A stretch of DNA of 64,000 bases from an uncultured Candidatus Saccharibacteria bacterium (lineage in GTDB: Bacteria > Patescibacteriota > Minisyncoccia > UBA6257 > WO2-44-18), in contig CAZDBT010000001.1 of the NCBI GenBank assembly GCA_964503795.1, forward strand, positions 4,518 through 68,517, in the 5' to 3' direction. Below are positions 10,838 to 57,912 of the stretch, one piece after another; the first letter of the stretch is position 1, and every line of letters begins with the position of its first letter. The position numbers and the translations under genes were made by a program. The notes under the pieces are model-generated. The model was not told where the DNA came from, ran no database searches, and saw only the letters and a list, made by a program, of their open reading frames with translations.

Positions 10838-10846
10838 CGCTGTAGG

Positions 10847-13003
10847 CTACAAAATTTGCTTGAACATGTCAAAATAACGAAATTCAAATTTTATCTCATG
10901 CTTACCCTCGGGAACAAAGATGCCCCCGAACACGGAATTAACCCGATACATTGGAGTTTCTTTTCCATCGATAAGGGCTTTCCAGCCGGGAAGGAAGTTC
11001 TGAGAGAACACCAGAAACTGCTGACCGGAAGAGTTGGTGGACACCGCTACGCCACTATTCTTCTGGGAATTTATTTTCACAGCCCCATCGCTCCTTACGA
11101 TCTTCTGGGCGCACTCCGCGCAGGTCACGAACACTCCATGAAAGTCGGCGGCCTTAAAGGATTGATAACCTTCTTCATCGTCTTTAACGAACTTGGTGAT
11201 CGGAGAAAAATAGGCCATCCGCTTCGCGTTCGGATTTTCATAAATGCCGAAAGAGAGTTGATGATTCCCCGCTGTCAATTCCGGTATACTCATCACTCCA
11301 ACCACCGGGAAATTAAAACCGGCGGCGCTAAGATTGAAAGCCGACAACAAATATCGTACCCCAAGAAAATTAAGCAAACCCTCCCGGTCCTTTAGCATAA
11401 GGATCTTCTCCATTTCGGGAACATTAAATTTATGCAGTTTCTTTTCTCCGTACTCTCCCAGCTGACGGCTGCCCAACAGAGCCATAAATCTCCCCATATT
11501 TCGCGGTAGCAACGGGTCAAGGAACTCTATGCTTTGGAGTCCATACCAAAGATTGATGTTCGGCTTAAGGGTATCGATCTCGCTGGCAGAAACAGATCGG
11601 ATGTCGTCCGGCGGAGCCTGATTTAACAAGGAGTAATAGAATACGGACATAGTATTTTCCGGCAGAACGAACAGGATGCGGCCGTCTTTCGCGGTAGCCT
11701 GCAATGTTTTTGTCGCGGAGTTGTCGGTAAAGATGGACGGGGCTACGGTTACCGGTCCGAATTTCCCGATCACGGCCAGTTTATAGTCCAAAACGGTTAA
11801 CCCGATCAAAAGTCCCAGCGCCCAAGATCGCGCCTTGGGATCTTTGAGCTGCTGGAACCTGGCTTCCAGCTTAGGCCATATTTGCGCCAAGCCCAGTCCG
11901 GCCAAAACCGATCCCGCGAAGGAACCCAGGATCATAAACCGGCTTGGGTAGCGGAAATAACGCAGAACCGGCAGATGCTGAAGAAGCCAGAAAAGCGGCG
12001 AACCGTTGAACGCGATAAAGAGAACTACGATGAATACGCAGCCGAAAAATTTAATGTAGGAATTCCGGAAAAAGAACGATCCGATGAAGAAAAGTAGCGG
12101 CAATAATCCCATATATAGAAATGCCTCCGATGAGCGCGGCCAAAACGGATCAATAAATAAAAGAAGGTCGGAAAAAGTTACCGGCTCAGCCGATGCCGCC
12201 TCGGTAAATGAAATCCCGCCCGCCCGGATCGAGTATTGGGTAACCGCAAAAGCGGGAATGAGCTGGAGAGACCCCAAGACGGTGCCGATGCCGCAGATCA
12301 GAATAAAATACCCGGCGATCTTCCATAACTTCTGCTTCATCTTCCAGGCCATAAATAGAGCGAATGCGAAACCGCCGATGATCGTATAGGTCACGAATTG
12401 ATAATTGCTGCTGCCTCCCAACCATCCCAAAAACACCCCCAAACTAAGCAGCCCTCCATACAACCAACGCCTTCTGGAAGAATCGGCTTTAATGAATTTT
12501 ATTATCCCCCAAAAGAAAAACGCCTGAAAAAGAACCGCGATCGCCGTAACCGAGTTGTTCTCATAAACTATCTGACTGATCAGATAACTGACGCCGCCAA
12601 CCCAGGCCGCAACTATTCCGGCATCCAACTCTTGTATGAATAAGACGGCAAAAAACAGAGCGAGAGACAAAACAAGGAAAAGACTTATGTGGTGCGCGGC
12701 CACCGGGGACAGGAAAAGAAGAAGGGCGTGGAGAGGAAAAAATGGATATGGTTGAGATACGAAAGCGGGAAAACCGCCGGCGTTATAGGGACTCCAAAAT
12801 GGACTATCGCCGCTCTGAAAGGCCGATTTTAAGAAAGTGAGATAAGGAATAAAAAGATCGCTCTGGTCTCCTCTGATGATCTTGCCTCCTAAAAAATAAG
12901 GGGAAAAGATCAGTAAAATTACAAAAAAAGACAGGCAGAGAATAAGAGGCGGTTTCTGGAATAAGACTTTCATTGTCAGATATAAAGTAAATATTACCTT
13001 CAA
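10847..13003 (-). CDS. YfhO-like polytopic membrane protein (putative GT-C extracytoplasmic glycosyltransferase)
   Basis: 718 aa. About 12 or more hydrophobic segments, followed by a large soluble C-terminal domain. Size and layout fit the YfhO family, and it pairs with the adjacent GT2 as in CsbB-YfhO systems. Confidence 0.5.
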   Translation of the reverse strand: MKVIFTLYLTMKVLFQKPPLILCLSFFVILLIFSPYFLGGKIIRGDQSDLFIPYLTFLKSAFQSGDSPFWSPYNAGGFPAFVSQPYPFFPLHALLLFLSPVAAHHISLFLVLSLALFFAVLFIQELDAGIVAAWVGGVSYLISQIVYENNSVTAIAVLFQAFFFWGIIKFIKADSSRRRWLYGGLLSLGVFLGWLGGSSNYQFVTYTIIGGFAFALFMAWKMKQKLWKIAGYFILICGIGTVLGSLQLIPAFAVTQYSIRAGGISFTEAASAEPVTFSDLLLFIDPFWPRSSEAFLYMGLLPLLFFIGSFFFRNSYIKFFGCVFIVVLFIAFNGSPLFWLLQHLPVLRYFRYPSRFMILGSFAGSVLAGLGLAQIWPKLEARFQQLKDPKARSWALGLLIGLTVLDYKLAVIGKFGPVTVAPSIFTDNSATKTLQATAKDGRILFVLPENTMSVFYYSLLNQAPPDDIRSVSASEIDTLKPNINLWYGLQSIEFLDPLLPRNMGRFMALLGSRQLGEYGEKKLHKFNVPEMEKILMLKDREGLLNFLGVRYLLSAFNLSAAGFNFPVVGVMSIPELTAGNHQLSFGIYENPNAKRMAYFSPITKFVKDDEEGYQSFKAADFHGVFVTCAECAQKIVRSDGAVKINSQKNSGVAVSTNSSGQQFLVFSQNFLPGWKALIDGKETPMYRVNSVFGGIFVPEGKHEIKFEFRYFDMFKQIL

Positions 13004-43824: not shown

Positions 43825-44292
43825 CTACTTGTCATCGCCATGACCATGATGGTCATCACTGTGATCATCGCCATTCTTATCGGGATCATCACCGTGTCCA
43901 TGGCCGTGCGGCGGCTTGCCATCACCGTCGCCAGGAGGCCCGGTCTGCGTCTGGCTCTGCGACTGATCCTGATTTTGAGTTTGACTCTGCGTTGCAGAGC
44001 TCGTAGAACTCGCTGAACTCGTCGAAGAGCTGGAACCGTCATTGTTGATCTTGATGTCATTCCGATACATTGAGGGCGGATTGACCACCGCCGGCGCGCC
44101 CGGATACTGATTGAACAGGGTGAGTGAAAGCCCGGCCTGCCAGTGCATTCCCCGCTCATAACTCGAATCGGTATTGCCGCTAAAACCTCCATACGGGGTT
44201 ACGCTCCAGCCGATACCTCCGCCTCCGCCCATACAACCCGAACAGAGAACCACAGAAAGAACGACCAGCACGACCGCCAGGAAACGACCCAT
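43825..44292 (-). CDS. Small secreted/lipoprotein-like protein with Ser/Gln-rich linker and His/Asp/Gly-rich C-terminal tail (putative metal-binding)
   Basis: 155 aa. The signal is MGRFLAVVLVVLSVVLCSGC. The tail is GKPPHGHGHGDDPDKNGDDHSDDHHGHGDDK. The gene is visibly GC-richer than its neighbours. Confidence 0.5.
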   Translation of the reverse strand: MGRFLAVVLVVLSVVLCSGCMGGGGGIGWSVTPYGGFSGNTDSSYERGMHWQAGLSLTLFNQYPGAPAVVNPPSMYRNDIKINNDGSSSSTSSASSTSSATQSQTQNQDQSQSQTQTGPPGDGDGKPPHGHGHGDDPDKNGDDHSDDHHGHGDDK

Positions 44293-44358: not shown

Positions 44359-45291
44359 CTAAAACAAGCCGTAAAACCAAATGAGCTTTTTCAGCTCCGC
44401 GAGCCGCCGATCTAAAACTTTCTTATCCTGGGCTTCCATCACCAAACGCAATAAATTTTCCGTGTTGGAGGGACGCAACGCAAACCACCATCCGCCAGCT
44501 GGCGGACCGAATTCCATTTTCAATCCATCGATCTTGGAAACCCGCTCGGCGACCGAACTGTATTTTTTTTCTATCATCGCCATCACCCCTTCCTTATCTT
44601 TCACCTCAAAATTCAATTCTCCCGACCGATAAAATACCGGCAAACCGTCCAGCCAACCGGAGAGCCTCTGACCGGCAGCCTTCATTTCCGCTACCGCATT
44701 CATCAGATAAATAGCCGCCAAAATTCCTGAATCAAAATAAGAAGCGCCTAGCGGAAAATAATAATGGCCGGAAAATTCACCGCCGAAGTCGGCTTTTTTT
44801 ACTTTCATCGTATTTTTAATGAAATAGTGGCCCACCCGAGATTCGATCAGCTTCTTCTTGGCCTTTTTAAAAAGATCGGCGGCCAGATATCCCGCTAGGA
44901 TGTTAGTCACTACCGGTCCGTGGAAATTCTTGCTCAATAGATACAAGATGGCATCGGCCGGAACTACCCTGCCCAGATCATCAACAAAAAACGCCCGATC
45001 GCCATCCGCGTCAAAGATCGCTCCGAAATCCGCCTTGTTTTTGACAACCGTTTTTTGCAAATCGCCGATCGCCCCTTCCGCCAGCGGATTGGGTCCGTGC
45101 GCCGGGAAGTTGCCGTCCGGTTTTTCATTGATCAATACATACTTAATACCGGATACTGAATACTTAATACTAAAAAGTTTTTCCAGAACTTTTCCCGTCG
45201 TTCCATTAGAACAATCAAAAACCACGCTCACCGTTTCGGCCAATTTAACTTTGCTTTTTAAAAAATCGACGTAGGACTTTAAATAATCCAT
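44359..45291 (-). CDS. Phosphomannomutase/phosphoglucomutase, C-terminal fragment (domains II-IV)
   Basis: 310 aa. GAIFDADGDRAFFVDD is the DxDxDR metal-binding loop of alpha-D-phosphohexomutases. It begins at the domain II start (DYLKSYVDFLKS, VVFDCSNGTTG). Confidence 0.8.
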   Translation of the reverse strand: MDYLKSYVDFLKSKVKLAETVSVVFDCSNGTTGKVLEKLFSIKYSVSGIKYVLINEKPDGNFPAHGPNPLAEGAIGDLQKTVVKNKADFGAIFDADGDRAFFVDDLGRVVPADAILYLLSKNFHGPVVTNILAGYLAADLFKKAKKKLIESRVGHYFIKNTMKVKKADFGGEFSGHYYFPLGASYFDSGILAAIYLMNAVAEMKAAGQRLSGWLDGLPVFYRSGELNFEVKDKEGVMAMIEKKYSSVAERVSKIDGLKMEFGPPAGGWWFALRPSNTENLLRLVMEAQDKKVLDRRLAELKKLIWFYGLF

Positions 45292-45316
45292 CTGTTCAGT
45301 TTACAAAAAACGGTCG

Positions 45317-45349
45317 GAATAAAAAATCCCCCGCTCTGACAAGAGCGGG
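45317..45349 (-). terminator. Rho-independent terminator after paralog A
   Basis: Minus-strand CCCCGCTCT-tgtc-AGAGCGGGG stem followed by ATTTTTTATT. Confidence 0.6.
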
Positions 45350-45360
45350 GAAAAGACTCA

Positions 45361-46125
45361 CTAGCGGGGGAACTTCCGGGAGGCGGCGAGACCGAGGTAG
45401 GAATCGGAGGAGTCGCCGTCGTACCAGTAGTCGACGTGGAGCTGGCCCCCGTAGAAGAGGACGTAGACGCGGCCGCCGTCCGAGGAAAGGGACGAGCTAC
45501 GCACTCCGTCGTTCTTCTCCCAGGTGTAGAGCTTGGTACCGGTCATCATATGATAGATGACCATCAGCTGGGCTAGGACAACGGCGGGCGGGTTCTCTTC
45601 CTGATTGGAGAGAAGCGCCATCTGCTGGCTGTAGGTCTTGTTGGTGGAATTGGGCACCCGATCCTTACGGATCAGGTGCCAGCGGACTTCCGGACGCTCC
45701 GAGTGAGCGAACGAATGGCCGTTGTACCAGGCGTCGGAGTAGGAGTAGAAAAGCTTGTTTGGAGCCTTCTCGCGGGTCTCCAAAATGGAGAGCGGGAAGC
45801 TGGGGAAAAGAATGTGTGTGTCTTTGCATTCCCGAAGGACGGATTCACCGAACGGGATAGTCGCCAGCTTCAGCAGGTCGCTTGAGGAGTATTTCACTGT
45901 GAGCTTGGACATCACGTCGGACGGAAAGATGAAATTCTGTCCCATGATCATCCGAGCCGCTTCCTGCGCGAGACCTTCTCCGACCGGTTGGCTCTGCTCG
46001 AGCTGTTTCACTAACCCGGCAACCTTCTGAAAAAGCGATGAGGTCGAGCTGATCAGCTTCTCTGCTTCGTCCCGGACTTCCACCAGAGCTAGCTTCACTG
46101 CTTCGCTCTTTTCCGCGTCGGTCAT
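45361..46125 (-). CDS. Unknown-family protein, paralog A of a tandem pair flanking hicBA
   Basis: 254 aa. It shares HILFPSFPLSILET, SERPEVRWHLIRKDRVPNSTNKTYSQQMALLS, EENPPAVVLAQLMVIY and LGLAASRKF blocks with the ORF at 46939..47697. GC-rich codon usage. AGGAGA SD. Confidence 0.6.
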   Translation of the reverse strand: MTDAEKSEAVKLALVEVRDEAEKLISSTSSLFQKVAGLVKQLEQSQPVGEGLAQEAARMIMGQNFIFPSDVMSKLTVKYSSSDLLKLATIPFGESVLRECKDTHILFPSFPLSILETREKAPNKLFYSYSDAWYNGHSFAHSERPEVRWHLIRKDRVPNSTNKTYSQQMALLSNQEENPPAVVLAQLMVIYHMMTGTKLYTWEKNDGVRSSSLSSDGGRVYVLFYGGQLHVDYWYDGDSSDSYLGLAASRKFPR

Positions 46126-46193
46126 GGCTTATCTCCTAAAAATTGAGTTTTGAGTTTTTTATCCGCTCATTGCGGATGTTTTGAACTGCCGTA

Positions 46194-46223
46194 AATATAG
46201 CACACTTTAGGCTTATTTGTCAA
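46194..46223 (-). promoter_or_regulatory. Sigma70-like promoter for paralog A
   Basis: Minus-strand TTGACA, an 18-nt spacer, then TATATT, about 60 nt upstream of the ATG at 46125. A 6-bp hairpin ATCCGC/GCGGAT sits in the 5' UTR. Confidence 0.45.
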
Positions 46224-46246
46224 GGGATCATCGGCGCCTCTTCGCT

Positions 46247-46480
46247 TTAGAAATTCAACCACTCTCCTTTCGGAATACCTGACTGCGCGATCATACCTTT
46301 TAAAGTTCGGGGTTTAAAAGTTTTCGATGAATGAAATGGGACGCAAACCTGCATCAATTTTCCCTCATAGACTCCAGTAAAAAAATGATGGCTTCCCTCC
46401 GTATGATTCAGGCGAAAACCGTGTTCTTTTAAAAACTCTGCGACGTCATGAAACGTCCAATTAAAAACCTTTCTAGGCAT
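46247..46480 (-). CDS. hicA: HicA-family toxin (mRNA interferase)
   Basis: 77 aa. FLKEHGFRLNHTEGSHHFFTG...VCVPFHSSKTFKPRTLKGMIAQSGI matches HicA/YcfA (GSHH-F motif). AT-rich compared with its flanks. Confidence 0.7.
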   Translation of the reverse strand: MPRKVFNWTFHDVAEFLKEHGFRLNHTEGSHHFFTGVYEGKLMQVCVPFHSSKTFKPRTLKGMIAQSGIPKGEWLNF

Positions 46481-46814
46481 GCACCAAGCTACGGTTACTC
46501 ATGCTGCCAAAAGTAAACACATTTGACGGCACCTCTTCTTTGTTAGACTTTTTTACCTCCAACGAGTCCCACAGATCTTCATATTCGGGATCAGTTTTTT
46601 GATTCAAGATATGATTGATTCTGGCTTTGGCTTTTTGGGCTGATTTTAAATACCCGCGGGTGGCTTCAAGTAAGAGGAAAAGAGCCTCATCTGGGGTATC
46701 CGCCGATTCAACAATATTGAACTCTAAACCCACTCCGTACCAAACACCCTCTTCGCGAAAGATTATATACCTCAATGACCCTTTTTGAAGAGTATTTTGA
46801 TTTAATTTAGTCAT
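46473..46814 (-). CDS. hicB: HicB-family antitoxin (RNase-H-like fold, UPF0150)
   Basis: 113 aa. YIIFREEGVWYGVGLEFNIVESADTPDEA matches the HicB N-domain. It overlaps hicA by 8 nt. Confidence 0.6.
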   Translation of the reverse strand: MTKLNQNTLQKGSLRYIIFREEGVWYGVGLEFNIVESADTPDEALFLLLEATRGYLKSAQKAKARINHILNQKTDPEYEDLWDSLEVKKSNKEEVPSNVFTFGSMSNRSLVHA

Positions 46815-46938
46815 TGTCTGTTAGAACTATTTTAACAAAAAATCCTCTTCGACGCAACGTCGGAGAGGATTGAGGATCAAGGGGAACAAGGGGTCAAAAG
46901 CTTCATCGGGATCAATCCGCCAGCTGGCGGACCAAAGC

Positions 46939-47697
46939 TCACTTCTGGAACTTCCGGGAGGCGGCGAGACCGAGGTCGGAATTGTAGTAGTCGCCGTTCC
47001 CGTCGCCGACGTCGAGCCGGCCCTCGTAGAAGCCGACGCCGACGCGGTCGCCGTCCGAGGACTTGGAGCAGGAGCGCGCGTAGACCGACTCGAACAACTT
47101 CTTGCCGGTCATCAGGAAATAGATGACCATCATCTGCACCAGCACAACCGCCGGCGGATTCTCTTCCTTGTCGGAAAGCAGAGCCAGCTGCTGATCGTAG
47201 GTCTTATTGGTGGAATTGGGCAGGTGGTCCTTGCGGATCAGATGCCAACGGACTTCCGGACGCTCGCTCTTGGCGAACTTCTCGGTGTTGTACCAGTCCT
47301 GTTCGTAGAACAGGCCGGAAGCTTTCGCCTTCGTCTCCAAGATGGAGAGGGGGAAGGTCGGGAAAAGGATGTGGTTGTCCCGAAGCTCTTGCAGGATTTC
47401 GGGGCTCCAGGGGATCTTCTCCAGCGACTTCAGCTCCTTGTCGGAGTATTTCACTCCAAGTTTGGCCATCACCTCGCCGGGAAGGATGCACTGATCGCCG
47501 AGGATCAGCTTGGCGCCGGACTGGTCGGAGGAATGACCACGACCACCGGAACGGATGAACTCCACCACTCTCTGCGCCAGGGCGTTGCCCTTGCTTTCGA
47601 TCACCGCCTGGGCTTCTTTCTGGCCCAGTCCGGCCGCTTCCAACTTCACCAGAAGCTCATGCTCGCTGTGAACGGAAAGCTCACGATGATTGCTCAT
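46939..47697 (-). CDS. Unknown-family protein, paralog B
   Basis: 252 aa, paralogous to 45361..46125 (about 50% identity by eye). GAAAGGAAG SD. A 29-nt stretch, gaacttccgggaggcggcgagaccgaggt, is identical at the 3' ends of both genes. Confidence 0.6.
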   Translation of the reverse strand: MSNHRELSVHSEHELLVKLEAAGLGQKEAQAVIESKGNALAQRVVEFIRSGGRGHSSDQSGAKLILGDQCILPGEVMAKLGVKYSDKELKSLEKIPWSPEILQELRDNHILFPTFPLSILETKAKASGLFYEQDWYNTEKFAKSERPEVRWHLIRKDHLPNSTNKTYDQQLALLSDKEENPPAVVLVQMMVIYFLMTGKKLFESVYARSCSKSSDGDRVGVGFYEGRLDVGDGNGDYYNSDLGLAASRKFQK

Positions 47698-47780
47698 CGC
47701 ACACTTCCTTTCTTGAAAAGAACTGTTGCTCGAGGCCCGAGCAGGCAGTCAAGCGAACGCTTGATTGCCTAAATTATAAT

Positions 47781-48173
47781 CTATTCCGCAGCTTTTGTCA
47801 ACAAGTCGAGAATTTCGGTTCCACTAATAATTTCGGCGCCTTTTTTCACCACCTTCAGACCGTTGAACTCCTTTGGCGCGTGCGAAGCGGTAACCATTAC
47901 TCCGCCAACCGCCTTCAATTCATTGGCCAGAAAATAAAACATCGGGGTGGTGCAAAGACCCGCCTCTTCAATAATAAAACCGCGATCCTGAAAAACTTCG
48001 CGAATCGCCTCATATATGGAAGGCGAACTCAAGCGTGCGTCGTAGCCAATAATGATCTTGCCCTGCTGGAAACGGTCGGCTAAGACTTCCGCGATCTGCC
48101 TGCCCGCCGCCTCGTTGATCTCATCCGGGTAGCGGCCGCGAATGTCGTAAGCCTTGAAGATCGCCCGGTTCAT
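47781..48173 (-). CDS. Phosphomannomutase/phosphoglucomutase, N-terminal fragment (domain I)
   Basis: Start at MNRAIFKAYDIRG (ATG 48173, forming an ATGA overlap with the HAD gene stop). VMVTASHAPKEFNGLKV is the phosphoserine loop (TASHNP-type). It stops after about 130 aa at the domain I/II boundary. Confidence 0.8.
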   Translation of the reverse strand: MNRAIFKAYDIRGRYPDEINEAAGRQIAEVLADRFQQGKIIIGYDARLSSPSIYEAIREVFQDRGFIIEEAGLCTTPMFYFLANELKAVGGVMVTASHAPKEFNGLKVVKKGAEIISGTEILDLLTKAAE

Positions 48174-48745
48174 AGAAGATGCGGCAGCAGTTCGCTCCAA
48201 GAACGAACTTGATGATCGACAAAAGACAATTTTCCGAATTTATGAAAACGATCGAACAATAACCGGGTGTTAACGTCAGTCAACTTTTCCAAAACGCTCG
48301 GCTGGTCATCCACGTAAAGATCAATGCCTAAACGAACGGCATGCTCATTTTTTTCTTCCGGCTCGCGCACAAAAAAAGCGTTCCGCTCGTTGAAATAAAT
48401 AGGCCAGATCCCGTGTTTTTCCAGAAGCCGGATCGCCATGCCGGGATTGTGACGGCGGGAGATCAGAAAAAAGGGCCGCCCGGAAGCTTTCACCCGCGCC
48501 AGACCCTCTTTGGCTCCGGTAACAGTCCCGGCTTCTAAAGCCAGAACCGGATCATCGTAAAGTAGCGGCCGCATCTTCGCCAAAATTCTCTCCGGCACGA
48601 TTGTTTCAATAAAATCAGCCGGAGTATCTTCCTCTTTCAGGGCAAAACCGAATTTTTTAGCCAGCAGGATCTTGTTTGCGGTGTTATCAATGATAACTCC
48701 GTCCATATCAAAACCAATTATTTTTGAGGTGGCTTTATTTGTCAT
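48170..48745 (-). CDS. HAD-superfamily hydrolase
   Basis: 191 aa. IIGFDMDGVIID is HAD motif I (DxDGV). GIDLYVDDQ is a motif IV candidate. Confidence 0.65.
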   Translation of the reverse strand: MTNKATSKIIGFDMDGVIIDNTANKILLAKKFGFALKEEDTPADFIETIVPERILAKMRPLLYDDPVLALEAGTVTGAKEGLARVKASGRPFFLISRRHNPGMAIRLLEKHGIWPIYFNERNAFFVREPEEKNEHAVRLGIDLYVDDQPSVLEKLTDVNTRLLFDRFHKFGKLSFVDHQVRSWSELLPHLL

Positions 48746-48790
48746 TTAACTTATATTATCCTTTAAAACAGCTGATTGAAAAGAGGCGAT

Positions 48791-49516
48791 ATGAAGAACG
48801 AAAATGTTTTTGAGGAAAAGGCTCAAAAGATACTGAACTATCTGAAAACGGATATCCGGCACAATAATAGCTTCCTGCCCAGACCATTTTTCTTTGAGCT
48901 GACCGGCTCTCCCGATGCGGGTAAAACCACCACCATTAAAGAGTCGTACAACTTTCTCCGTTTGATGAAATTCAAGGTTTTGATGCCCCAGGAAGGAGCA
49001 GAGGTCATCCAGCATATCGAACGCACAACGCCTCTCTACAATATCCGCACCGGTCTCTACGCCCTGACACAACTCATCGACTTTTCTACCAGCCATCTCT
49101 ACGATGTGGTGATCTTCGACCGCTGCATCTTTGATGCTTACTGCTGGATGATGTATTGGAGAGGAAAAGAAAAGTTGTCCGATCAGGAAATGGCCATGAT
49201 CCAATCATTTTTCCTGTCCAGATTCTGGATGGATCGCATTGATCTATCAATATTCATGATCTGCGATCCGGAGGAGGCGATGCGGCGCGGGAAAAGAATC
49301 GCCGTGAGCCAAAAAATGGGTCAGACCTCTAATCCCGGGACTATTCAAACCCTCGTGGACCGCTACCGAACCGCTTTTGCCCAGCTCAAGCCCGATCATC
49401 CGCAGCTCCAGCTTTTGGATACTACGAAGATGAGGGAGCGGGCAGTCATCGAGAAAGTAACCGGCCTGCTGCTGGAAGCAATGGAAAAGAAAGTAGAACG
49501 ATCAACCACTCTCTAA
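48791..49516 (+). CDS. P-loop NTPase, (deoxy)nucleoside/nucleotide kinase-like
   Basis: Start at MKNENVF (ATG 48791, AAAGAGG SD). FELTGSPDAGKTT is a Walker A motif. VIFDRCIFDAY resembles the DRS/DRY region of dNK/dTMP kinases. Assignment is tentative. Confidence 0.45.
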   Translation: MKNENVFEEKAQKILNYLKTDIRHNNSFLPRPFFFELTGSPDAGKTTTIKESYNFLRLMKFKVLMPQEGAEVIQHIERTTPLYNIRTGLYALTQLIDFSTSHLYDVVIFDRCIFDAYCWMMYWRGKEKLSDQEMAMIQSFFLSRFWMDRIDLSIFMICDPEEAMRRGKRIAVSQKMGQTSNPGTIQTLVDRYRTAFAQLKPDHPQLQLLDTTKMRERAVIEKVTGLLLEAMEKKVERSTTL

Positions 49517-49565
49517 AGGGGTGGTTTTTTAATTTCTCGCTGATTTCCGTTATACTATTGAATAG

Positions 49566-51707
49566 ATGTCCAGGAAAGATAAAAAGAAGGCGGACCGCAT
49601 CCATCCGGAAACCAAAAACAGCATCCTGGCTGTTATTTTAGTCGGCGTTGCGGTTCTTTTGTTGCTGGCATCCTTCCACAAAGCCGGGCCGGTTGGTGAA
49701 TTCGTTTATATGGTATTGGAAAAATTATTCGGTTGGGGCTACTACTTGTTGCCGACGATCGCCTTGCTGGTGGCCGGCACATTCCTTCTGGCGAAACGGA
49801 AGATCTTTCTTGCCAACAGCATAATCGGATCGGCGTTATTTATCGTCTCCGGCTTGGGTCTGATGGATATTCTGCTCGACGGGAAAGGCGGGATGGCCGG
49901 AAAGCTAGTGGGCTTCCTCCAAGTTCCCTTCGGATATACCGCTTCTATTATACTGGCCTTCGTTCTGCTGATCACCTCGATCCTCGTCACCTTCAACGCT
50001 TCAATAAAATTCTGGAGAGTTGGGAAGGAGGGACCGGAAAAACTTGCTGGGTCCGCAATGGACGAAGAACCGGACGAGGTGAAGATCGCGGAAGATATGC
50101 CGCCTGCTCCGAAAACTAAAAAAGGCGGGGCCGATGAAGATGAAGAGGAAATTGAAGGGGACGAGGAAGAGTTGGAGCTGAAAGTCGTAGGCGCTTCCGC
50201 TCCGTCCGCTGTCGTAAAAAAAGCCGGTCTGAAAATAAAAGAATATGGAAATTACGTGGCGCCGCCGCAATCTTTATTGAAATCATCGGTAGAAAAACCG
50301 ACCTCCGGCGATCTGCGCGCTAACGCCAATATCATCAAGCGGACTTTGGACAGTTTCGGCATTCCCGTGGAGATGGGCGAGATAAATATCGGTCCCAAAG
50401 TTACCCGCTACACGCTCAAACCGGCAGAAGGAGTGAAGCTGGCTAAGATCCTTGCGTTGAACCAAGACCTTTCGCTGGCCCTCGCCGCTCATCCGATCCG
50501 CATTGAAGCCCCGATCCCGGGCAAATCTCTGGTCGGCATTGAGGTCCCTAATAAATCAGCGGCCGTGGTGCGCTTGGGCAGTCTGATCGCTTATCCGGAA
50601 TTTAAAGACTCCGGTCCGCTGGCCTTCGTTGTCGGGCGCGGCGTCAGCGGTGAACCGATCATGGCGGATATAGAAAAAATGCCCCACTTGCTGATCGCCG
50701 GGGCCACCGGCAGCGGCAAAAGCGTTGGCATCCATTCTTTGATCGTCTCATTGCTTTATAAAAACTCCCCCGCCACATTGCGACTGGCGATGGTAGATCC
50801 AAAGCGCGTGGAGCTGTCGGTTTATGGAGGACTGCCGCACCTGATAGCGCCGGTGGTCGTGGAAGGAAAAAAATCGGTTGGGCTGTTCCGCTGGGCGATC
50901 AAAGAAATGGAAAACCGATATGAGATCCTGCTTAATGCCGGCGCCCGCGATATCCGCTCCTACAACCAAAAAAATTCTCCGCCACTGCCCTACTTAGTGA
51001 TGATCATCGATGAGCTGGCCGATCTGATGGCGTCTTATGGAAAAGAGATCGAAGGTTCTATCGTGCGCCTCGCCCAGATGGCCCGGGCAACCGGTATCCA
51101 TTTGGTGGTTGCCACTCAACGGCCGTCGGTAGAGGTTGTCACCGGTCTGATCAAAGCCAACATCACCTCCCGGATGGCGATGCAGGTGGGAAGCCAAATA
51201 GATTCACGAACGATCCTAGATATGGCCGGAGCGGAAAAACTTTTGGGCGGCGGCGATATGCTTTTCCTTTCTTCCGAATTCTCCAAACCCAAACGTATTC
51301 AGGGCGCCTATATTTCCGAAGAAGAGATCAAAGCGGTGGCTAATTTTATCGAGGAGAATAACGAATTGGCCGATATGACGGCGGAGATCCCAGACAACAA
51401 GAGCCTGCCGATGAAGAACGAACCGTCTGATTTTTTGGAAAACCTGGATGATGGCGACGAGGCCGACGATGAACTTTATCACGAAGCGATCAAGGTGGTT
51501 ACGGAAGCCGGGAAAGCCTCCGCTTCCCTGCTCCAACGCCGATTGAAAGTGGGCTACGCCAGAGCCGCCCGCCTGCTGGATATAATGGAAGACAAAGGAG
51601 TGATCGGCCCGGGAGACGGCGCTAAACCGCGCGAAGTTTACAATGACAATCCCGCCGCTCCATCCGCCGGCGACCCCGGCCCATCCGAACCGGATTCTTT
51701 TGCTTAA
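49566..51707 (+). CDS. ftsK: DNA translocase FtsK/SpoIIIE
   Basis: 713 aa. N-terminal transmembrane helices, Walker A GATGSGKSVGIHSLI, Walker B VMIIDELADL, and a C-terminal gamma winged helix (LLQRRLKVGYARAARLLDIMEDKGVIGP). Confidence 0.9.
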   Translation: MSRKDKKKADRIHPETKNSILAVILVGVAVLLLLASFHKAGPVGEFVYMVLEKLFGWGYYLLPTIALLVAGTFLLAKRKIFLANSIIGSALFIVSGLGLMDILLDGKGGMAGKLVGFLQVPFGYTASIILAFVLLITSILVTFNASIKFWRVGKEGPEKLAGSAMDEEPDEVKIAEDMPPAPKTKKGGADEDEEEIEGDEEELELKVVGASAPSAVVKKAGLKIKEYGNYVAPPQSLLKSSVEKPTSGDLRANANIIKRTLDSFGIPVEMGEINIGPKVTRYTLKPAEGVKLAKILALNQDLSLALAAHPIRIEAPIPGKSLVGIEVPNKSAAVVRLGSLIAYPEFKDSGPLAFVVGRGVSGEPIMADIEKMPHLLIAGATGSGKSVGIHSLIVSLLYKNSPATLRLAMVDPKRVELSVYGGLPHLIAPVVVEGKKSVGLFRWAIKEMENRYEILLNAGARDIRSYNQKNSPPLPYLVMIIDELADLMASYGKEIEGSIVRLAQMARATGIHLVVATQRPSVEVVTGLIKANITSRMAMQVGSQIDSRTILDMAGAEKLLGGGDMLFLSSEFSKPKRIQGAYISEEEIKAVANFIEENNELADMTAEIPDNKSLPMKNEPSDFLENLDDGDEADDELYHEAIKVVTEAGKASASLLQRRLKVGYARAARLLDIMEDKGVIGPGDGAKPREVYNDNPAAPSAGDPGPSEPDSFA

Positions 51708-51736
51708 ACTTTTTTGGAAATAAAAATCCCCCGGCC

Positions 51737-51967
51737 CTAGGTCGGGGGATTTAGATTGGTAAGCAAAGCCTGGATGCAGGCGCGAGACTTCGCGATCTCA
51801 TCGATAACTGCTCGGAGCCCACTTTCCGATCTCGCCAACTCGGCCTCCGCGCTTTTCAGCACCGAAACCGCCAGCTCCCTGGAAACCGAATCATCAATCT
51901 CTCTCTGCAACGCCGCGTTCTCCTCCCGCAACTGCAGCAGCGCCAGATCTTTTAAGTCCTTGAGCAT
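51737..51967 (-). CDS. Small coiled-coil protein, hypothetical
   Basis: 76 aa. Heptad-like LKDLALLQLREENAALQREID. Its 3' end overlaps the ftsK terminator hairpin, so it is uncertain. Confidence 0.3.
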   Translation of the reverse strand: MLKDLKDLALLQLREENAALQREIDDSVSRELAVSVLKSAEAELARSESGLRAVIDEIAKSRACIQALLTNLNPPT

Positions 51968-52095
51968 ACCGAGCTCCTTTGCTTGGGTTCTTGTTAAAGT
52001 CCAAACTTCACTTCCGCGATAATAGCACGACTAAAAAAATTTGCAACCCCGTTGTGCGGGATAAAAAAACTCTTTATAATGCGAGGGAAACAAAG

Positions 52096-52767
52096 ATGGA
52101 GCAGAAAACCCTTAAAGAAATTATTTTGGAACGGATCGACGCCAAAGGGCTGAACCTTGAAAAGGTTTGCATCCTGACCGGCGTGCCAAAACATTACCTG
52201 GACTATATTTTCGCCGGAGAATGGCATCGGTTACCGGCCGCGCCGTACACCCGCGGATATTTTAAAAAATTGGAAATGGCCCTTGACGCGACACCGGGCG
52301 ACCTTTGGGAGTTATACAAAGACGAGGCGGAAATGCGATCCTCCGGAGCCACCGACAAGCTGCCGGAGAACCGCTTTGCGATCAAAAAAGTTAAGCGCGC
52401 CTGGATCTGGCCGGTCGTGCTGGGAGGAATTGCGATCGTCTATCTGGCGATCAATGCCAGCCGGCTGATCGGTATCCCTCCCTTGGATATTCAAAATCCG
52501 CTAAGCGCCACCGTCATATCTCACCTGCCCGGTTTTGAGTTAAGCGGGATGATCGACCCCCGCGACAAAGTATTCGTCAACAACGAAGAGGTTTTTGTTG
52601 ACAAAGACGGCCGATTCCAAGAAAATTATAATCTGCAACCCGGCCTAAACACTTTTGAAGTTCTAGCCAAGCGTTTTCTCGGCCGGGAAACTAAAGTCGT
52701 CAAACAAATAATTTATCAACCGCAGCCGGAAGAGCCGAAAACCACGGCGCCGAATGGCTGGAAATAA
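52096..52767 (+). CDS. RodZ-like HTH-domain membrane protein
   Basis: Start at [13 protein letters not shown] (ATG 52096, GAGGGAAACAAAG upstream). It has an N-terminal XRE-type HTH, one transmembrane helix ([18 protein letters not shown]) and a C-terminal extracellular domain. A TATAAT box at 52072-52077 may be its promoter. Confidence 0.5.
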
Positions 52768-53788
52768 TCCAATGACCAATAAAAAGGAAGATACTAGTAA
52801 GGAAGTGGAAACAAAAAAAGAAGCTACCGCCTTAGACAGTTTGCTGTCTTCGCTGCAGGAAAAATTCGGGGAGGGAGCGATCATGAAGCTTGGGGACGCG
52901 AAAAAGCTGAATGTGGAATCCATTCCCACCGGATCGTTCTCGCTCGATCTGGCTTTGGGGGTTGGCGGACTGCCGAAAGGCAGGATCATTGAGATCTATG
53001 GCCCCGAATCTTCCGGAAAGACCACCTTGGCGCTCAACGTGATCGCTCAAGCCCAAAAAAGGGGCGGTAAGGCGGCTTTCATAGATGCGGAACATGCCAT
53101 GGACCCGGAGTATGCCTCAAAACTCGGCGTGAGGGTTAAAGAACTGCTCATCTCCCAACCTGATAACGGCGAAGAAGCTCTGAATATTCTGGAAAGCCTG
53201 GTACGATCCGGGATTATTGATGTAGTGGTGGTGGACTCTGTTGCCGCACTGACTCCCAAAGTTGAAATAGAGGGCGAGATGGGCGCTCAATATATGGGCT
53301 TGCAGGCGCGTATGATGTCCCAGGCATTGCGAAAATTAACCGCTATCTCCGCAAAATCCAACACCATGGTGATCTTCATCAACCAGCTACGCGAAAAGAT
53401 CGGCATTGTATTCGGCAATCCGGAAACTACTCCCGGCGGCCGCGCTCTGAAGTTCTATTGCTCTGTTCGTATTGACGTTCGCAAGGAAGCAGTAATTAAA
53501 AAAGGAGAGGATGTCGTTGGCAATCGGGTCCGGGCAAAAGTGGTGAAAAATAAAGTAGCGGCGCCGTTTAAGATAGCGGAATTTGATATTATGTACGGAT
53601 CGGGAATGTCTTATGAGGCCGATGTCGCCAATGCCGCTTTAAAATACGGAGTGATCACCAAGGCTGGCGCGTCTTATAGCTTTGATGGAGAAAAATTGGG
53701 TGTAGGGATAGAGAACGTGAAGGCCCGCCTGGTAGAGGACAAAAAACTTCTTCACGCGATAGAACAGAAGGTCCGCGCAGTCGCCTAG
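52754..53788 (+). CDS. recA: Recombinase RecA
   Basis: 344 aa. [19 protein letters not shown] is Walker [10 protein letters not shown] and [10 protein letters not shown] are canonical RecA motifs. The start may be the downstream Met at 52772. Confidence 0.95.
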
Positions 53789-53800
53789 CAATAAGAAACA

Positions 53801-54847
53801 CTAAAGGATCGGGTAAATTAAGCCGACCAAAAATTCAAGAACGCCATCGTACCATCGCTGGCGGAATCCCGCCGCCGAAAAGCGCGCGGACTGCGTTTTC
53901 CATTTATTCAAAATAATTTTAAGATCTCCGATCATGTCTTTGCGCTGAAAAACTACGCTGGCTTCTAAATTAAAATCAAAGCTTTGGGCGTCCACATTGT
54001 TGGACCCAACCAATCCCTCGTGGTCATCCACCAGTAAGACTTTGGCGTGATTCATTTCCGACATAATAAAGAAATTGATCATCGGGCTTAATTTTTTCAA
54101 AATATAACGGTGCGCCAGCTGAACCAGCGCATGATCGGTATCGCCGGGAACGATCACCTCGATCTCAACTCCCCGCTTGGCGGCTTTCTTTAGGGCGTTG
54201 AAAAACCAACGCTGGGGAACAAAGTAAGGAGTAACGATGGTGATCTTATTCCGCGCTTCAGCGCACTTCTTTTTATAATATTTGATCAAAGACCGGCGCC
54301 CATAGAACGGCCAGCGTTCAATTAGCCAGGTTTTCGCTTGATATAATGAGGCGTTCAGTTTTTGCAATTTCCATTTCCGGAACCTCAACACTTCTAGATC
54401 CCTTCCTCCGGAAAGATAATAGATCTTCGCGAAAGAACTCAAAAAGCGTTTCACCAAGATCCCGGTGGCGCGCAAATGCAGATCTAACCAGTCGGCATAT
54501 TCTCCTCGGATATTCACTCCGCCGATGAAGCCAACCTGCTCATCAACCACTAATAATTTTCGGTGGGTGTGGTTGATCCAGCGATTGTAGATCAGGATCT
54601 CCGCTCCGGCTTCGGTGAAAGCTTTCCGATCGATCGTACCGAACCAAAAACTACCGGCTCGATCAATAATAATTTTTACTTTCACCCCATTCCGAGCCTT
54701 GGTTTTGATTGCCTCCAAAAAATGGTGGGTGTCCGGATCGTCGGCGAGAATAAAACTTTCTAAAAAAATGGACTTGGTGGCATGCTCGATCGCCTCAAGC
54801 ATCGCCGCCCAAGCCTTGTCGGATCTTGTGTAGAATTTGTACTTCAT
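53801..54847 (-). CDS. Phospholipase D-family protein (cardiolipin synthase-like), soluble
   Basis: 348 aa. Two HKD motifs: HRKLLVVD and HAKVLLVDD. Confidence 0.7.
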   Translation of the reverse strand: MKYKFYTRSDKAWAAMLEAIEHATKSIFLESFILADDPDTHHFLEAIKTKARNGVKVKIIIDRAGSFWFGTIDRKAFTEAGAEILIYNRWINHTHRKLLVVDEQVGFIGGVNIRGEYADWLDLHLRATGILVKRFLSSFAKIYYLSGGRDLEVLRFRKWKLQKLNASLYQAKTWLIERWPFYGRRSLIKYYKKKCAEARNKITIVTPYFVPQRWFFNALKKAAKRGVEIEVIVPGDTDHALVQLAHRYILKKLSPMINFFIMSEMNHAKVLLVDDHEGLVGSNNVDAQSFDFNLEASVVFQRKDMIGDLKIILNKWKTQSARFSAAGFRQRWYDGVLEFLVGLIYPIL

Positions 54848-54851
54848 CCAA

Positions 54852-55814
54852 TTAGATCAGCATCCGGACCACCTCCGCCACCTTATCTGGATCGTGGCGT
54901 ATGAAACCGGTCTTCCGCAATAAGTCGGCTACGATCGGCACGGGCTTTGCTGAAAAATTATTAACATCTACCTCCACGAACTGCGCCTTTTCTTTAGCAT
55001 AGGGCTTAAACCGCATCAATGTCGGTTGGGTTTTATTGATAACGACATAGTCCAAGACGTTCCTTCCCAAATAATCTTCCACCGTTCTCACGAAGTCCGA
55101 AACGCGGAAACCGTTGGTTTCTCCGAATTTGGTCATGATATTAACAAAGTAGATCTTTTTGCCTTTAGCTTTTTCCAGGGCTTGCTTAACGCCTTTTACC
55201 AACAAATTGGGCAGCAGGCTGGAATAAAGATCGCCCGGACCGATCAAGATCAGATCCGCTTCGATGATGGCTTTCCGGGCGAGTGGATTGATCTGCGCTT
55301 CGGGGCTTAGCCAGACTTTTTTTATTTTAAGATTCCCGTCATGCTTAGGAATATCAATGTTGGTTTCTCCTTTGATGACCTCTCCGTTCTCCAGCTCCGC
55401 CATCAGCGAGCACTTCTTCAGAGTGGCCGGCAAAACCCGTCCCTGTACGGACAAAATTTTCCCCGCTTCCATCACTGCCTTATCAAAACTGCCGGTGATC
55501 CGCTCTAGGGCGGTAATGATCAGGTTGCCGAAGCTGTGTCCCGACAAGCCACTCCCCTCCTGAAAACGATAATTGAAAAGATCGGACAACATCTTATTGT
55601 CAGAAGAAGAAAGCGCGATCAGGGCGCGACGAATATCGCCGGGCGGCAAAATTCCGAACTCTTCCCGCAATATGCCGGAGGACCCTCCTTCGTCCGCGGC
55701 GGTAACCACGGCGGTAATGTCGGGAAATCGGGTTTTTAATCCCAATAACACCGGGAATATTCCCGTGCCACCCCCGATCACCACGATCTTTTTTCCTTTC
55801 TGTTGACCAGTCAT
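54852..55814 (-). CDS. YvcK/CofD-like gluconeogenesis factor family protein (UPF0052)
   Basis: 320 aa. KIVVIGGGTGIFPVLLGLK...AVVTAADEGGSSGILR is the family signature. Confidence 0.8.
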   Translation of the reverse strand: MTGQQKGKKIVVIGGGTGIFPVLLGLKTRFPDITAVVTAADEGGSSGILREEFGILPPGDIRRALIALSSSDNKMLSDLFNYRFQEGSGLSGHSFGNLIITALERITGSFDKAVMEAGKILSVQGRVLPATLKKCSLMAELENGEVIKGETNIDIPKHDGNLKIKKVWLSPEAQINPLARKAIIEADLILIGPGDLYSSLLPNLLVKGVKQALEKAKGKKIYFVNIMTKFGETNGFRVSDFVRTVEDYLGRNVLDYVVINKTQPTLMRFKPYAKEKAQFVEVDVNNFSAKPVPIVADLLRKTGFIRHDPDKVAEVVRMLI

Positions 55815-55886
55815 TTATTGTTATCCATCTTAGCTCTTCGCCCGACTTTGGTCTAGATAGAAAAACCACTCCGAGGGGCAGAGTGG

Positions 55887-56534
55887 TTAAGGATTCCATT
55901 TGAGTGTGGACGGCATACCGAAAGTGGAGCTCCGAACTCCGTTCGCATAAGACAGAAAGGTGCCTTTGTCGGCCCGCATTGCCATTACCTTACTGCTGGG
56001 AACGGGCGGACAACCCAGCAAATAAAGATTGCGCTGGGTTAGGATCTCCGGATCCCAGCACAGAAGCGCGATCGCCTCCTCTACCGTCAGACCGCGGCGG
56101 TCCGCCTCGTTTAGCCTCCTGCGAACATTATTTATATCTTCCCGATACTCTATACCCGGCTCAACATCAAAGATCAGGTAAATGTCGTTCGGAACGGTTG
56201 ATGGAGGCTGGTAGAAGGCGCGGGCTTCTGCGTCGCACTCTCCGGAACGGCTCAACTCTTCAACCTGACCGACAAATACATCCTTCAGCTGCCGGAGCCA
56301 TGAAACGACCTGGTCGGGAATGACGATCAGGCACGGAATGTGATTTTCGTGAAACGTAAGATGTAAAACTTCTTCATTGCTACGCACGAACCTGGCCAAG
56401 AACGAAAGCCTTTTGAGAAAATTCACGCTTTGTTTACCGGCTTTTTGCTCATAGCAAAGATCGAGCAATTTTTTGGCCTGTCGGTCGTAAACTTCTACCA
56501 GCTGATCACGCGCAACCTCCACTATCTCCGCCAT
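55887..56534 (-). CDS. Hypothetical protein
   Basis: 215 aa, no recognisable motifs. GC somewhat above the local background. Confidence 0.4.
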   Translation of the reverse strand: MAEIVEVARDQLVEVYDRQAKKLLDLCYEQKAGKQSVNFLKRLSFLARFVRSNEEVLHLTFHENHIPCLIVIPDQVVSWLRQLKDVFVGQVEELSRSGECDAEARAFYQPPSTVPNDIYLIFDVEPGIEYREDINNVRRRLNEADRRGLTVEEAIALLCWDPEILTQRNLYLLGCPPVPSSKVMAMRADKGTFLSYANGVRSSTFGMPSTLKWNP

Positions 56535-56679
56535 ACAGGCCTCCGCTTTTTCGGTCTCAAGATTCTACCGAGAGCATACCGCTTTTTTAATATTCGTCAA
56601 CAAAAATCCCGGCTCCACGCCGAGACATACAAAACGATCTTAATCAGTCAATGACTTGACTATCTAGTCAAGCAGTTGT

Positions 56680-57051
56680 CTAAAGATTTTCGTAGTGGGA
56701 AATTTGCAGCGGATCCAGACAGATCGCCACCAGATCGATCCGGTATCCCCTTGTTGGGTCTATGATTGCCTCATTGGATCCGGCAAATAATGCGGCAACT
56801 CGTTTTAACTTTGTCAGTTTGGCGCTAGTTAAATTGTCTTCTGGATGTAAATCAGTGTTTGCCGGCAAACGTCGTACGCTTTTTACCTCCACGAAAACCA
56901 GAACTCCTTCATGATCTTTAGCGATAATATCCAACTCGCCCCAGGGCTTCCAATAATTTCTTTCAAGAATCTTGTATCCTTTCTTAATTAGAAAATCACA
57001 TGCGTGACCTTCTCCGATTGCTCCGGTGATAGATGTTTTACTTTTAAGCAT
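56680..57051 (-). CDS. yraN: YraN-family (UPF0102) endonuclease-like protein
   Basis: 123 aa. GAIGEGHACDFLIKKGYKILERNYWKPWGELDIIAKDHEGVLVFVEVKSVR matches the YraN consensus. Confidence 0.75.
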   Translation of the reverse strand: MLKSKTSITGAIGEGHACDFLIKKGYKILERNYWKPWGELDIIAKDHEGVLVFVEVKSVRRLPANTDLHPEDNLTSAKLTKLKRVAALFAGSNEAIIDPTRGYRIDLVAICLDPLQISHYENL

Positions 57052-57058
57052 AATCGTT

Positions 57059-57184
57059 AAGTGATGTTTAGCGTTTTACATTGTACTACGAATTTCCAGA
57101 CTACAAAAGGCCAGATTCTGTGATGGGCATTCTAACTTTGACTGGGCGTAGTTACGAAACGACGTAAAACGCTAAGCATCACTT
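57059..57184. repeat. 126-bp MITE-like element or large stem-loop with 21-bp terminal inverted repeats
   Basis: AAGTGATGTTTAGCGTTTTAC at 57059-57079 pairs with GTAAAACGCTAAGCATCACTT at 57164-57184 (20/21). It starts 8 nt upstream of the yraN ATG. Confidence 0.6.
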
Positions 57185-57396
57185 GTCGCCTTTGGCATAT
57201 CTAAATATGTTTCACACTAAACACTTTTTTTAATTCCCTCACAAAGTTGGTACGGTGTTTAACACTTAAGTGTTAAACAATTCCCCTAATAGCCCCTGTT
57301 AAACAAATTAGTATGTTTCACACTGATTGCCGCATTCTGTCAAGTAGTTGTTTTGCCGCATTATGCGGCAATCCGGCAAAGAAAAACCCCGCTAAA

Positions 57397-57912
57397 CTAA
57401 GCAGGGTCAATTAGACAGTGGAAGCCTCTGTCTAAGGCATCAAATATTGCTTCTCTCATAAGGGCGGCGCAATGCTCTCTGGCGCGAGGCAGGCCAGAGA
57501 GTCTCATCAGGTCTGCTTCTTTTAATGATAGGATCTCTTCGACTCTCTTATGTTCTACATATCCGGAAAACCAACTAGAGGCGGCGATCAGCCAGCTACA
57601 ACCTATTGAGACATGCTTCACGGCCTCAATGTAATAACAGGACCCAAACGCGAGGCAAAAGGAACAGTTAACGAATTCTACGTCAGAACTGCCATAGGCG
57701 GAGTTGGGAGCTTTTCCGGTGGCCGAACACTCCAAGCAGGGAAGCATCTCCCACTTGAAACTCAACGCCAAGAAATCGTTGTACAATTCCTTTTTGGCGA
57801 TCCCGGTCAGGATCCTCGCTTCTCTATCCGGAAAACTTCCCCAGTTACGAGGTTTCCGGTAATGCTCGAGAAGAAGATCATTGGCGTCCTGGGATTCATT
57901 CATGGCCAACAT
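57397..57912 (-). CDS. NifU/IscU-like Fe-S cluster scaffold domain protein (divergent, with insertions)
   Basis: 171 aa. LLEHYRKPRNWGSFPD matches the IscU N-terminus (DHYENPRNVGS). SIGCSWLIAASS matches YGCGSAIASSS, and LPRAREHCAALMREAIFDAL matches LPPVKIHCSILAEDAIKAAI. Confidence 0.55.
   Translation of the reverse strand: MLAMNESQDANDLLLEHYRKPRNWGSFPDREARILTGIAKKELYNDFLALSFKWEMLPCLECSATGKAPNSAYGSSDVEFVNCSFCLAFGSCYYIEAVKHVSIGCSWLIAASSWFSGYVEHKRVEEILSLKEADLMRLSGLPRAREHCAALMREAIFDALDRGFHCLIDPA

Follow-up and report, generated by a model that had tools for sequence, protein, structure and literature searches.

The 64,000-nucleotide stretch of DNA analyzed here (the window), from an uncultured Candidatus Saccharibacteria bacterium (assembly GCA_964503795.1, contig CAZDBT010000001.1), encodes a phosphomannomutase (PMM) as two separate halves. 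The insert between them carries two paralogous genes, A (46939..47697, 252 aa) and B (45361..46125, 254 aa), which are target genes, i.e. genes for the variable proteins, of a diversity-generating retroelement (DGR), with an AT-rich hicB-like/hicA pair situated between the two. The locus as a whole is very likely to consist of three layers of different age, namely an old fission of PMM, a DGR-derived module, and a later toxin-antitoxin insertion, and each of these three elements belongs to a known kind.

In the model proposed here, the first layer is an old fission in a large group of Patescibacteria, which cut the PMM gene within the linker of domains I and II and left one cistron for domain I (~130 aa) and another for domains II-IV (~300 aa). 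The second layer would have been added when a module of two tandem, promoter-bearing genes with a C-type-lectin fold, each ending in a ~115-nt variable repeat (VR), a GC-rich conserved tail, and a hairpin, was inserted, in the lineage of the window, at the junction of the PMM cistrons, and the third when the AT-rich hicB-like/hicA pair was inserted between the variable-protein genes. The genes of this locus and their associated elements lie on the minus strand of the window, to which coordinates given without a locus name refer; homologous loci are designated by L numbers and individual homologs by P numbers.

Variable Proteins of a Diversity-Generating Retroelement

DGRs are a known class of elements, abundant in Patescibacteria, in which a reverse transcriptase (RT) and Avd copy the RNA of a template repeat (TR) with misincorporation opposite adenines, following which the cDNA replaces the VR and rewrites the ligand-binding surface of the encoded protein. 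The products of genes A and B are 54% identical (6e-79 in the pairwise comparison, with the family alignment in agreement), and neither gave a match in Pfam, NCBIfam, or PDB sequence searches. In the original prediction, made from the letters of the window, they were considered the best candidate for an undescribed system; that they are instead DGR target genes is evident from the TR, Avd, and RT of homologous loci and from the adenine signature of the window itself.

The clearest of the homologous arrangements is found in L001, where, downstream of the homolog P0013 (46% identical), the 3′ end of that gene is repeated over 120 nt, with all 15 of the 15 VR/TR mismatches located at adenines of this second copy; Avd and, next to it, the RT come after the repeat. 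A scan of metagenomes with a nine-member family alignment returned 334 relatives, with 80 loci kept, and in these Avd is positioned directly downstream in 29 and RT in 24. A TR lies ~370 nt after the VR in ~35 loci, and its mismatches are nearly all at TR adenines, e.g. 20/20 in L102, 14/14 in L162, and 11/11 in another locus. Tandem double targets, which are present in ~13% of DGRs (PMC5758913), occur in six loci, five of which (L120, L121, L141, L161, and L163) have one TR following them, and the paired VRs of the tandem-target loci differ at all four bases, as is expected of independent rewriting.

The AlphaFold2 model of paralog A is a confident one (pLDDT 85.7), and its predicted fold is C-type-lectin/FGE-like, with matches that include the DGR proteins TvpA, Mtd, and TaqVP. 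The family is large, comprising 4149 clusters at 50% identity in an exhaustive profile search (E <= 1e-3), and no relatives were found in the viral contigs scanned with the variable-protein alignment.

With Mtd (Bordetella phage), TvpA (Treponema denticola), TaqVP (Thermus), and the cellular DGRs of Patescibacteria, which correspond to clade 2 of Roux et al. 2021 (PMC8144416), the window genes share the 3′-terminal VR, the adenine-specific differences, and variable codons of the NNC type. They are further like known DGR variable proteins in the GC-rich tail followed by a hairpin, the C-type-lectin/FGE-like fold, the Avd and RT of homologous loci, and the tandem targets. They differ in that their family has no Pfam or NCBIfam model and possesses a conserved structured 5′ leader, and in that the window proteins are small (~250 aa), with no signal peptide or membrane segment recognizable by eye.

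Several further features were observed in the homologous loci. An 11-bp GC-rich hairpin, GAATGCCCACC[GTAT]GGTGGGCATTC, is located 19-22 nt past the end of the TR (L001:9277-9302, L102 ~7460, L161 ~12468) and is probably part of the DGR RNA that is recognized by RT-Avd. Motifs of the CTTGA type recur every 9-10 nt after the VR (..aaCCTTGAatcCTTGAgggCTTGAcccTCTTGAttcCTTG.., e.g. L120:7367-7420), with a weaker repeat of this type after paralog A in the window (46875-46910) and in L008. In some loci the RT ORF (open reading frame) is broken up by a (GA)7-16 tract, which occupies a single conserved site directly ahead of the ...GNLTSQLFANIY motif and leaves the two halves out of frame (L001-L003:10208-10225, L132:3835-3848, L142:2484-2501, and L162:4353-4384). 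These six loci represent three distinct elements, as L001-L003 hold the same one and L132 and L142 differ in repeat number alone, with (GA)7 in the former, (GA)9 in the latter, and identical flanks; no further (GA)n tract of at least five repeats is present in ~83 loci. Such tracts suggest a slipped-strand, phase-variable on/off switch of the RT. Finally, five independent short-read assemblies (L175, L176, L007, L008, and L010) break within a paralog, the break being located either in or close to the VR or at the A/B repeat.

Diversification Signature of the Window

VR-A (46947..47061) forms the 3′ end of gene A, with the GC-rich conserved tail CTCGGTCTCGCCGCCTCCCGGAAGTTCC, and is related to VR-B (45369..45486), the corresponding part of gene B, by the direct repeats D2 and D3; its sequence is identical in three consensus assemblies. 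Over the 29 codons compared, VR-A and VR-B differ at eight first, eight second, and no third positions, whereas the scaffold of the two genes (153 codons) differs at 44 first, 42 second, and 67 third positions. At the scaffold rate, the chance that no third-position difference would be seen in the VRs is ~5e-8.

The bases at which the two VRs differ were compared with the TR of a related locus, L178 (GCA_041643015.1), the PMM-C (the C-terminal PMM half) of which is 74% identical to that of the window. Just upstream of this PMM-C lies the C-terminus of Avd, along with a convergent TR, 265 nt from PMM-C, that has many AAC codons and can be aligned with the window VRs. Adenines of this TR occupy 15 of the 16 sites at which VR-A and VR-B differ, while A accounts for 28 of its 115 bases (24%); the adenines changed are 13 of the 28 in VR-A and 16 of the 28 in VR-B. 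Seven differences from the L178 TR at other bases are common to both window VRs, which fits derivation from one TR of the window's own lineage.

The GC-rich tail is identical in genes A and B, and hairpins follow ~19 and ~22 nt past the respective VRs; across the family such post-VR hairpins are found at 14-22 nt, and their sequences differ. The first, TCCGCC[AGCT]GGCGGA (46915..46936), is one of two occurrences of a 22-mer, the other being within PMM-C, and the second (45327..45352) is a strong 11-bp hairpin with a T-run, 36 nt before the start codon of PMM-C, that may be post-VR hairpin and intrinsic terminator in one. The conserved GC-rich tail is IMH-like (initiation of mutagenic homing), and tail and hairpin may have a role in homing. 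Suitable probe sequences for the cognate TR would be TCCTCGGACGGCAACCGCGTCAAC... and the 3′ tail ...CCTCCCGGAA.

Trans-Acting or Lost Machinery

No third VR-like copy and no tblastn match to RT or Avd is present in the 64-kb window, and present activity is thus unproven. As TR, Avd, and RT are all missing, genes A and B are either non-adjacent targets served in trans by a DGR located elsewhere in the genome, at a distance of >16 kb to one side or >45 kb to the other, or targets that have recently lost their DGR. The Avd and the matching TR beside PMM-C in L178 indicate that a whole DGR was probably once in or beside this site, although the order in which its parts would have been lost, like any present activity, is a matter of inference.

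Non-adjacent and remote DGR targets are documented (PMC5758913, PMC8144416) and would have been missed by earlier metagenome surveys (PMC8144416); remote ones (>100 kb) have been reported only near lineage 4 and not in the DGRs of the candidate phyla radiation (CPR) (Wu et al. 2018, PMC5758913). The window genes resemble the non-adjacent or remote targets of Treponema denticola in having a VR, a conserved tail, a hairpin, and no local RT, and differ from them in that trans-targeting in the window genome is putative.

A quite plausible, if not the favored, alternative is that genes A and B are fossil targets, in which the VRs were frozen upon deletion of TR, Avd, and RT, and which now encode ordinary ligand-binding proteins. 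The lack of this machinery over 64 kb is as this alternative would have it, and so are the mere 69 nt between gene B and PMM-C, where the relative has TR and Avd, and the many family members that have long flanks but no RT (L113, L114, L116, and L166). On the other side, the absence of third-position differences from the 29 VR codons, as compared with 44% in the scaffold, and the seven differences from the L178 TR that lie outside its adenines and are common to both VRs argue for homing from one lineage TR not long ago; both genes also retain the conserved tail and the hairpin, and targets distant from their RT are, as stated, documented. A far less probable alternative holds that the VRs owe their similarity to gene conversion between the paralogs, or to strong codon-level constraint, with no retroelement involved; the C-terminal tracts are indeed 80-92% identical compared with ~71-77% for the rest of the genes, but conversion would have removed first- and second-position codon differences as well, and, given the concentration of differences at TR adenines and the bona fide TR of ~35 homologs, it was rejected as the source on the codon-position and TR-adenine pattern.

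A Two-Cistron Phosphomannomutase

PMM-N (47781..48173) is a stand-alone domain I with the TASHAP phosphoserine loop and PF02878 as its only Pfam match (PGM_PMM_I, 5e-29), and PMM-C (44359..45291) is an intact ORF for domains II-IV (PF02879, PF02880, and PF00408; PGM_PMM_II 1e-20, III 2e-15, and IV 7e-10) in which the metal loop (DADGDR), the sugar loop (GEFSGHYYF), and the phosphate loop (RPSNTE) can all be recognized. All four phosphohexomutase domains and all four loops are, in this way, present across the two ORFs. On the full-length NCBIfam profile NF007088 (456 positions), the N half covers positions 9-130 and the C half positions 155-452, and in the alignment to full-length relatives the sole part absent between the halves is the linker, which in those relatives is variable, with a length of 20-50 residues. 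The two halves are, as the original prediction had it, collinear parts of one enzyme, and PMM-C retains every invariant column of 20 homologs. Compared with single-chain PMM and phosphoglucomutase (PGM) enzymes, such as AlgC, ManB, and GlmM, the window PMM is alike in its four domains, its catalytic and binding loops, and their collinearity, and differs in being made of two polypeptides, with the cut in the linker of domains I and II. We infer that it would act as a two-chain complex.

The split is not confined to the window. In the syntenic relatives L091/L092, L093, and L177, which share the order FtsK, NT5C-like, PMM, RNaseH-like, exonuclease, aminotransferase, and ClpB and have no cassette, the PMM halves are encoded by separate neighboring ORFs. 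In L091/L092 and L093 (PMM-C 65-69% identical), the N ORF, with ...GTEIKQWII* as its end, shares 13 nt, ATGGATTATTTAA, with the C ORF (MDYLK...), and a gap of 1 nt separates the two ORFs in L177 (PMM-C 51% identical). Consistent with that, 94 of the best 120 matches to the joined halves are proteins of 276-340 aa that contain domains II-IV only (46-74% identity), and the other 26 are full-length PMMs. The occurrence of the split in syntenic loci that have no cassette places the fission before the insert: the PMM split predates the cassette, which landed at a cistron junction. The overlap of the N stop with the C start in L091 and L093 suggests that the two cistrons are translationally coupled.

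It follows that the model of the original prediction, in which PMM was a whole gene until a mobile or addiction-type cassette landed in it and divided it at the boundary of domains I and II, is highly improbable. The cassette does sit exactly between the halves, and the final nine residues of PMM-N are derived from it; the same-position split is, on the other hand, found in dozens of Patescibacteria, including the cassette-free syntenic loci, which are relatives of precisely the sort that the prediction had itself named as decisive against an insertion, and neither a transposase or integrase nor terminal inverted repeats or a target-site duplication were found for the insert. Even less probable is that PMM is not truly split, its ORFs being joined by programmed -1 frameshifting or separated by sequencing errors, for which the -1 frame of the C ORF and its 13-nt overlap with the N ORF in L091 and L093 could be cited; frameshifting at the overlap is made unlikely by the TAA in the C frame directly before the ATG and the lack of a slippery heptamer, the junction of L177 is a different one, the layout recurs in many independent assemblies, and in the window the halves are 2.5 kb apart.

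The closest full-length PMMs, P0030 and P0032 (57% and 54% identical), read ...KKWIPLE-(~25 aa low-complexity linker)-NGMDYLKPY... and thus retain both the "KxWI" end of an N cistron and the "MDYLK" start of a C cistron, which looks like a secondary re-fusion of split genes. Genome contigs searched with the PMM-C alignment yielded, among the matches listed, only distant full-length PMMs (31-42% identity) matched through generic peptide patterns, and a literature search turned up no description of PMM fission in CPR bacteria.

Boundaries of the Insert and Their Effect on PMM

The six minus-strand ORFs that span 44359..48173, along with their domains, the promoter, and the terminators, are all at the positions that had been given for them, and the order of the ORFs between the PMM halves is 252 aa, 113 aa, the 77-aa HicA, and 254 aa. 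The section 45684..57697 of the window is 100% identical in two independent Logan assemblies, which excludes an assembly artifact for the insert region.

The insert extends over ~45292..47810, i.e. ~2.5 kb, and, in line with the 2.5-kb insertion of the original prediction, this segment is missing from the syntenic L091, L093, and L177. The homology of PMM-N to its relatives ends after GTEI (window 47811), and comparison with the junctions of L091, L093, and L007 shows that its final 10 codons, including the stop (47781..47810, LDLLTKAAE*), come from the insert; the nine that are translated hold the -35 box of promoter A (47773..47801, TTGACA-17-TATAAT), which matches the sigma-70 consensus at 12 of 12 positions. 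On the other side, the sequence is again homologous to that of the relatives from the ATG of PMM-C (45291), or from a few bases ahead of it.

The -35 box of promoter A, located within the end of the PMM-N ORF, is at the same time the left end of a common cassette, as the homology between the window, L007, and L008, in which the upstream genes differ, starts there. L007 (GCA_030680775.1) has the same arrangement of PMM-N, promoter, leader, and variable protein as the window, up to the end of its contig, and in L008 the unit of promoter, leader, A, and B follows a nucleotidyltransferase gene instead of PMM-N. Its location behind a different gene, with homology beginning at the -35 box, indicates that the unit moved as a block. 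None of the four genes of the insert is a recombinase, and at its ends, 45292 and 47810, neither matching, transposon-like repeats nor the target-site duplication for which the original prediction had proposed to look were found; a cassette of the transposon, insertion sequence, or integron type was rejected for the lack of such repeats and duplication.

In the relatives, a GGAG that belongs to the end of the N ORF directly precedes the C start, and in the window no recognizable Shine-Dalgarno (SD) sequence or promoter was found for PMM-C, which lies 36 nt behind the terminator hairpin. The insertion replaced the last codons of PMM-N and removed both the coupling and the SD sequence of PMM-C, which, being behind a terminator, would probably depend on read-through.

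Two observations concern this gene and its surroundings. The 22-nt palindromic TTYGGTCCGCCAGCTGGCGGAT within PMM-C (44490..44511), which encodes a GPPAGG insertion, matches the hairpin after VR-A (46915-46936) at 21 of 22 positions; its 16-nt core is also present in an unrelated locus (L108:4392), at this site, the PMM-C of L091 (~6770) carries another perfect palindrome, TTCGCCGGCCGGCGAA, and that of L093 carries none. The palindrome could have originated by short-patch conversion or as a small palindromic insert. Beyond PMM-C, a 155-aa ORF (43825-44292, minus strand) has a lipoprotein-like N-terminus (…VLCSGC…), a tail rich in His, Asp, Ser, and Gln, and a promoter of its own (10/12 match), and in its place L091 and L093 have FolD and a 158-aa gene.

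The hicBA Module

The GC-rich/AT-rich/GC-rich mosaic on which the original prediction had based a stepwise assembly is borne out by the computed GC contents, which are 0.57-0.61 for the paralogs, 0.38-0.42 for hicBA, and ~0.47 for PMM, and the stepwise assembly itself finds support in L008. There, the paralogs A′ and B′ are arranged in tandem, 180 nt apart and with no hicBA, and the terminator and promoter are the same as those that flank hicBA in the window. The window terminator, a hairpin with a T-run after gene A (CCTCTCCGAC-GTTGC-GTCGAAGAGG ATTTTTT, 46838..46871), was recognized by reading of the sequence and as an inverted blastn self-match, and its homolog in L008 sits directly before promoter B (46194..46223 in the window, TTGACA-18-TATATT with a TG extension, 11/12 match), which is kept in L008. 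A tandem that lacks hicBA but has the same flanking sequences implies that the AT-rich pair was inserted later.

The identity of HicA (46247..46480, 77 aa) is secure (PF07927, 6.7e-12, above the cut-off). Its gene overlaps by 8 nt the hicB-like ORF (46473..46814, 113 aa, AT-rich), a candidate antitoxin that gave no Pfam, NCBIfam, or PDB sequence match. The pair is like HicAB type II toxin-antitoxin systems in having a HicA domain, overlapping genes, and, upstream of HicA, a small partner predicted to be HicB-like in the fold of its N-terminus, and unlike them in that the order is antitoxin-first and the partner matches no HicB sequence model, nor could a DNA-binding domain be recognized in it with confidence. 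A gene for DUF7387 and HicA are also found three genes downstream of the family member P0010 in L005 (3168-3591), which constitutes a second, independent association of hicA with variable-protein genes; the otherwise identical locus L004 has DUF7387 (10785-11003) without HicA.

A Structured 5′ Leader RNA

Upstream of most family members there is a leader in which a P1 stem of 12-15 bp encloses a variable P2 and is followed by a second, covarying hairpin and then by AGGAGGTRTGCSATG. In its alignment (A6, 46 sequences, with full versions e.g. at L100:9891-10003 and L001:7882-8003), 95.6% of the cells are paired, as compared with 36-44% when the partners are slid, and compensatory changes were seen in 12 of 20 pairs, G-U pairs being frequent on the sense strand.

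The leader of gene A (47695..47772) consists of a 12-bp P1 stem (GGCAATCAAGCG / CGCTTGACTGCC), a second hairpin, and an SD sequence with GTGTGCGATG, and it looks like a shortened version of the family leader from which P2 is absent. It is the sole match of the covariance model in the window, at the expected place (14.8 bits, E 0.023), and it is near-invariant among the window, L007, and L008, though the proteins are ~75% identical. A search of the window and 13 loci against Rfam gave no match for the leader. In L130 (1-97, minus strand), a LOOT RNA match (RF03000, 52.7 bits) precedes the variable-protein leader by ~170 nt and lies on the strand opposite to it.

Points Against the Three-Layer Reading

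It has to be noted that several points weigh against the composition of the locus out of three layers as set out above, beyond the lack of a third VR-like copy, RT, and Avd in the window. The adenine test was made with the L178 TR, which comes from another genome, the cognate TR of this genome having not been seen, and VR-B is one codon longer than VR-A and the L178 TR, for which a single TR offers no simple explanation. The L178 contig is itself 1.8 kb long, so that the place of its DGR relative to PMM-N is unseen, and it may be a chimeric assembly. The assignment of the HicB candidate rests on a moderate fold match (N-terminal, HicB-like), and PMM-C could, despite its intact ORF, be on its way to loss.

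Implications

These results do away with a false lead: no mobile element broke PMM, and what had seemed an unknown system is a pair of DGR targets. It is possible, but rather doubtful, that three further readings hold jointly, namely that the tandem pair is an actively trans-diversified, non-adjacent DGR target set, that the family is controlled by an undescribed structured 5′ leader RNA, and that an obligate two-subunit PMM has been rewired by the insertion. If the last of these were true, the large PMM subunit would be expressed only by read-through from a variable-protein gene.

For annotation, the results mean that a large family of DGR variable proteins with the C-type-lectin fold (>4000 clusters at 50% identity) is without a Pfam or NCBIfam model and that its members will often be truncated in, or absent from, metagenome-assembled genomes. 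Two-cistron PMM/PGM is widespread in Patescibacteria, and pipelines that expect a single chain would take the domain-I gene for a fragment and could report the pathway as absent. For the biology of these bacteria, the locus indicates that DGR targets can lie far from the reverse transcriptase, or outlive it, in small Patescibacteria genomes, and both the leader RNA and the (GA)n tracts are relevant to the regulation of hypermutation.

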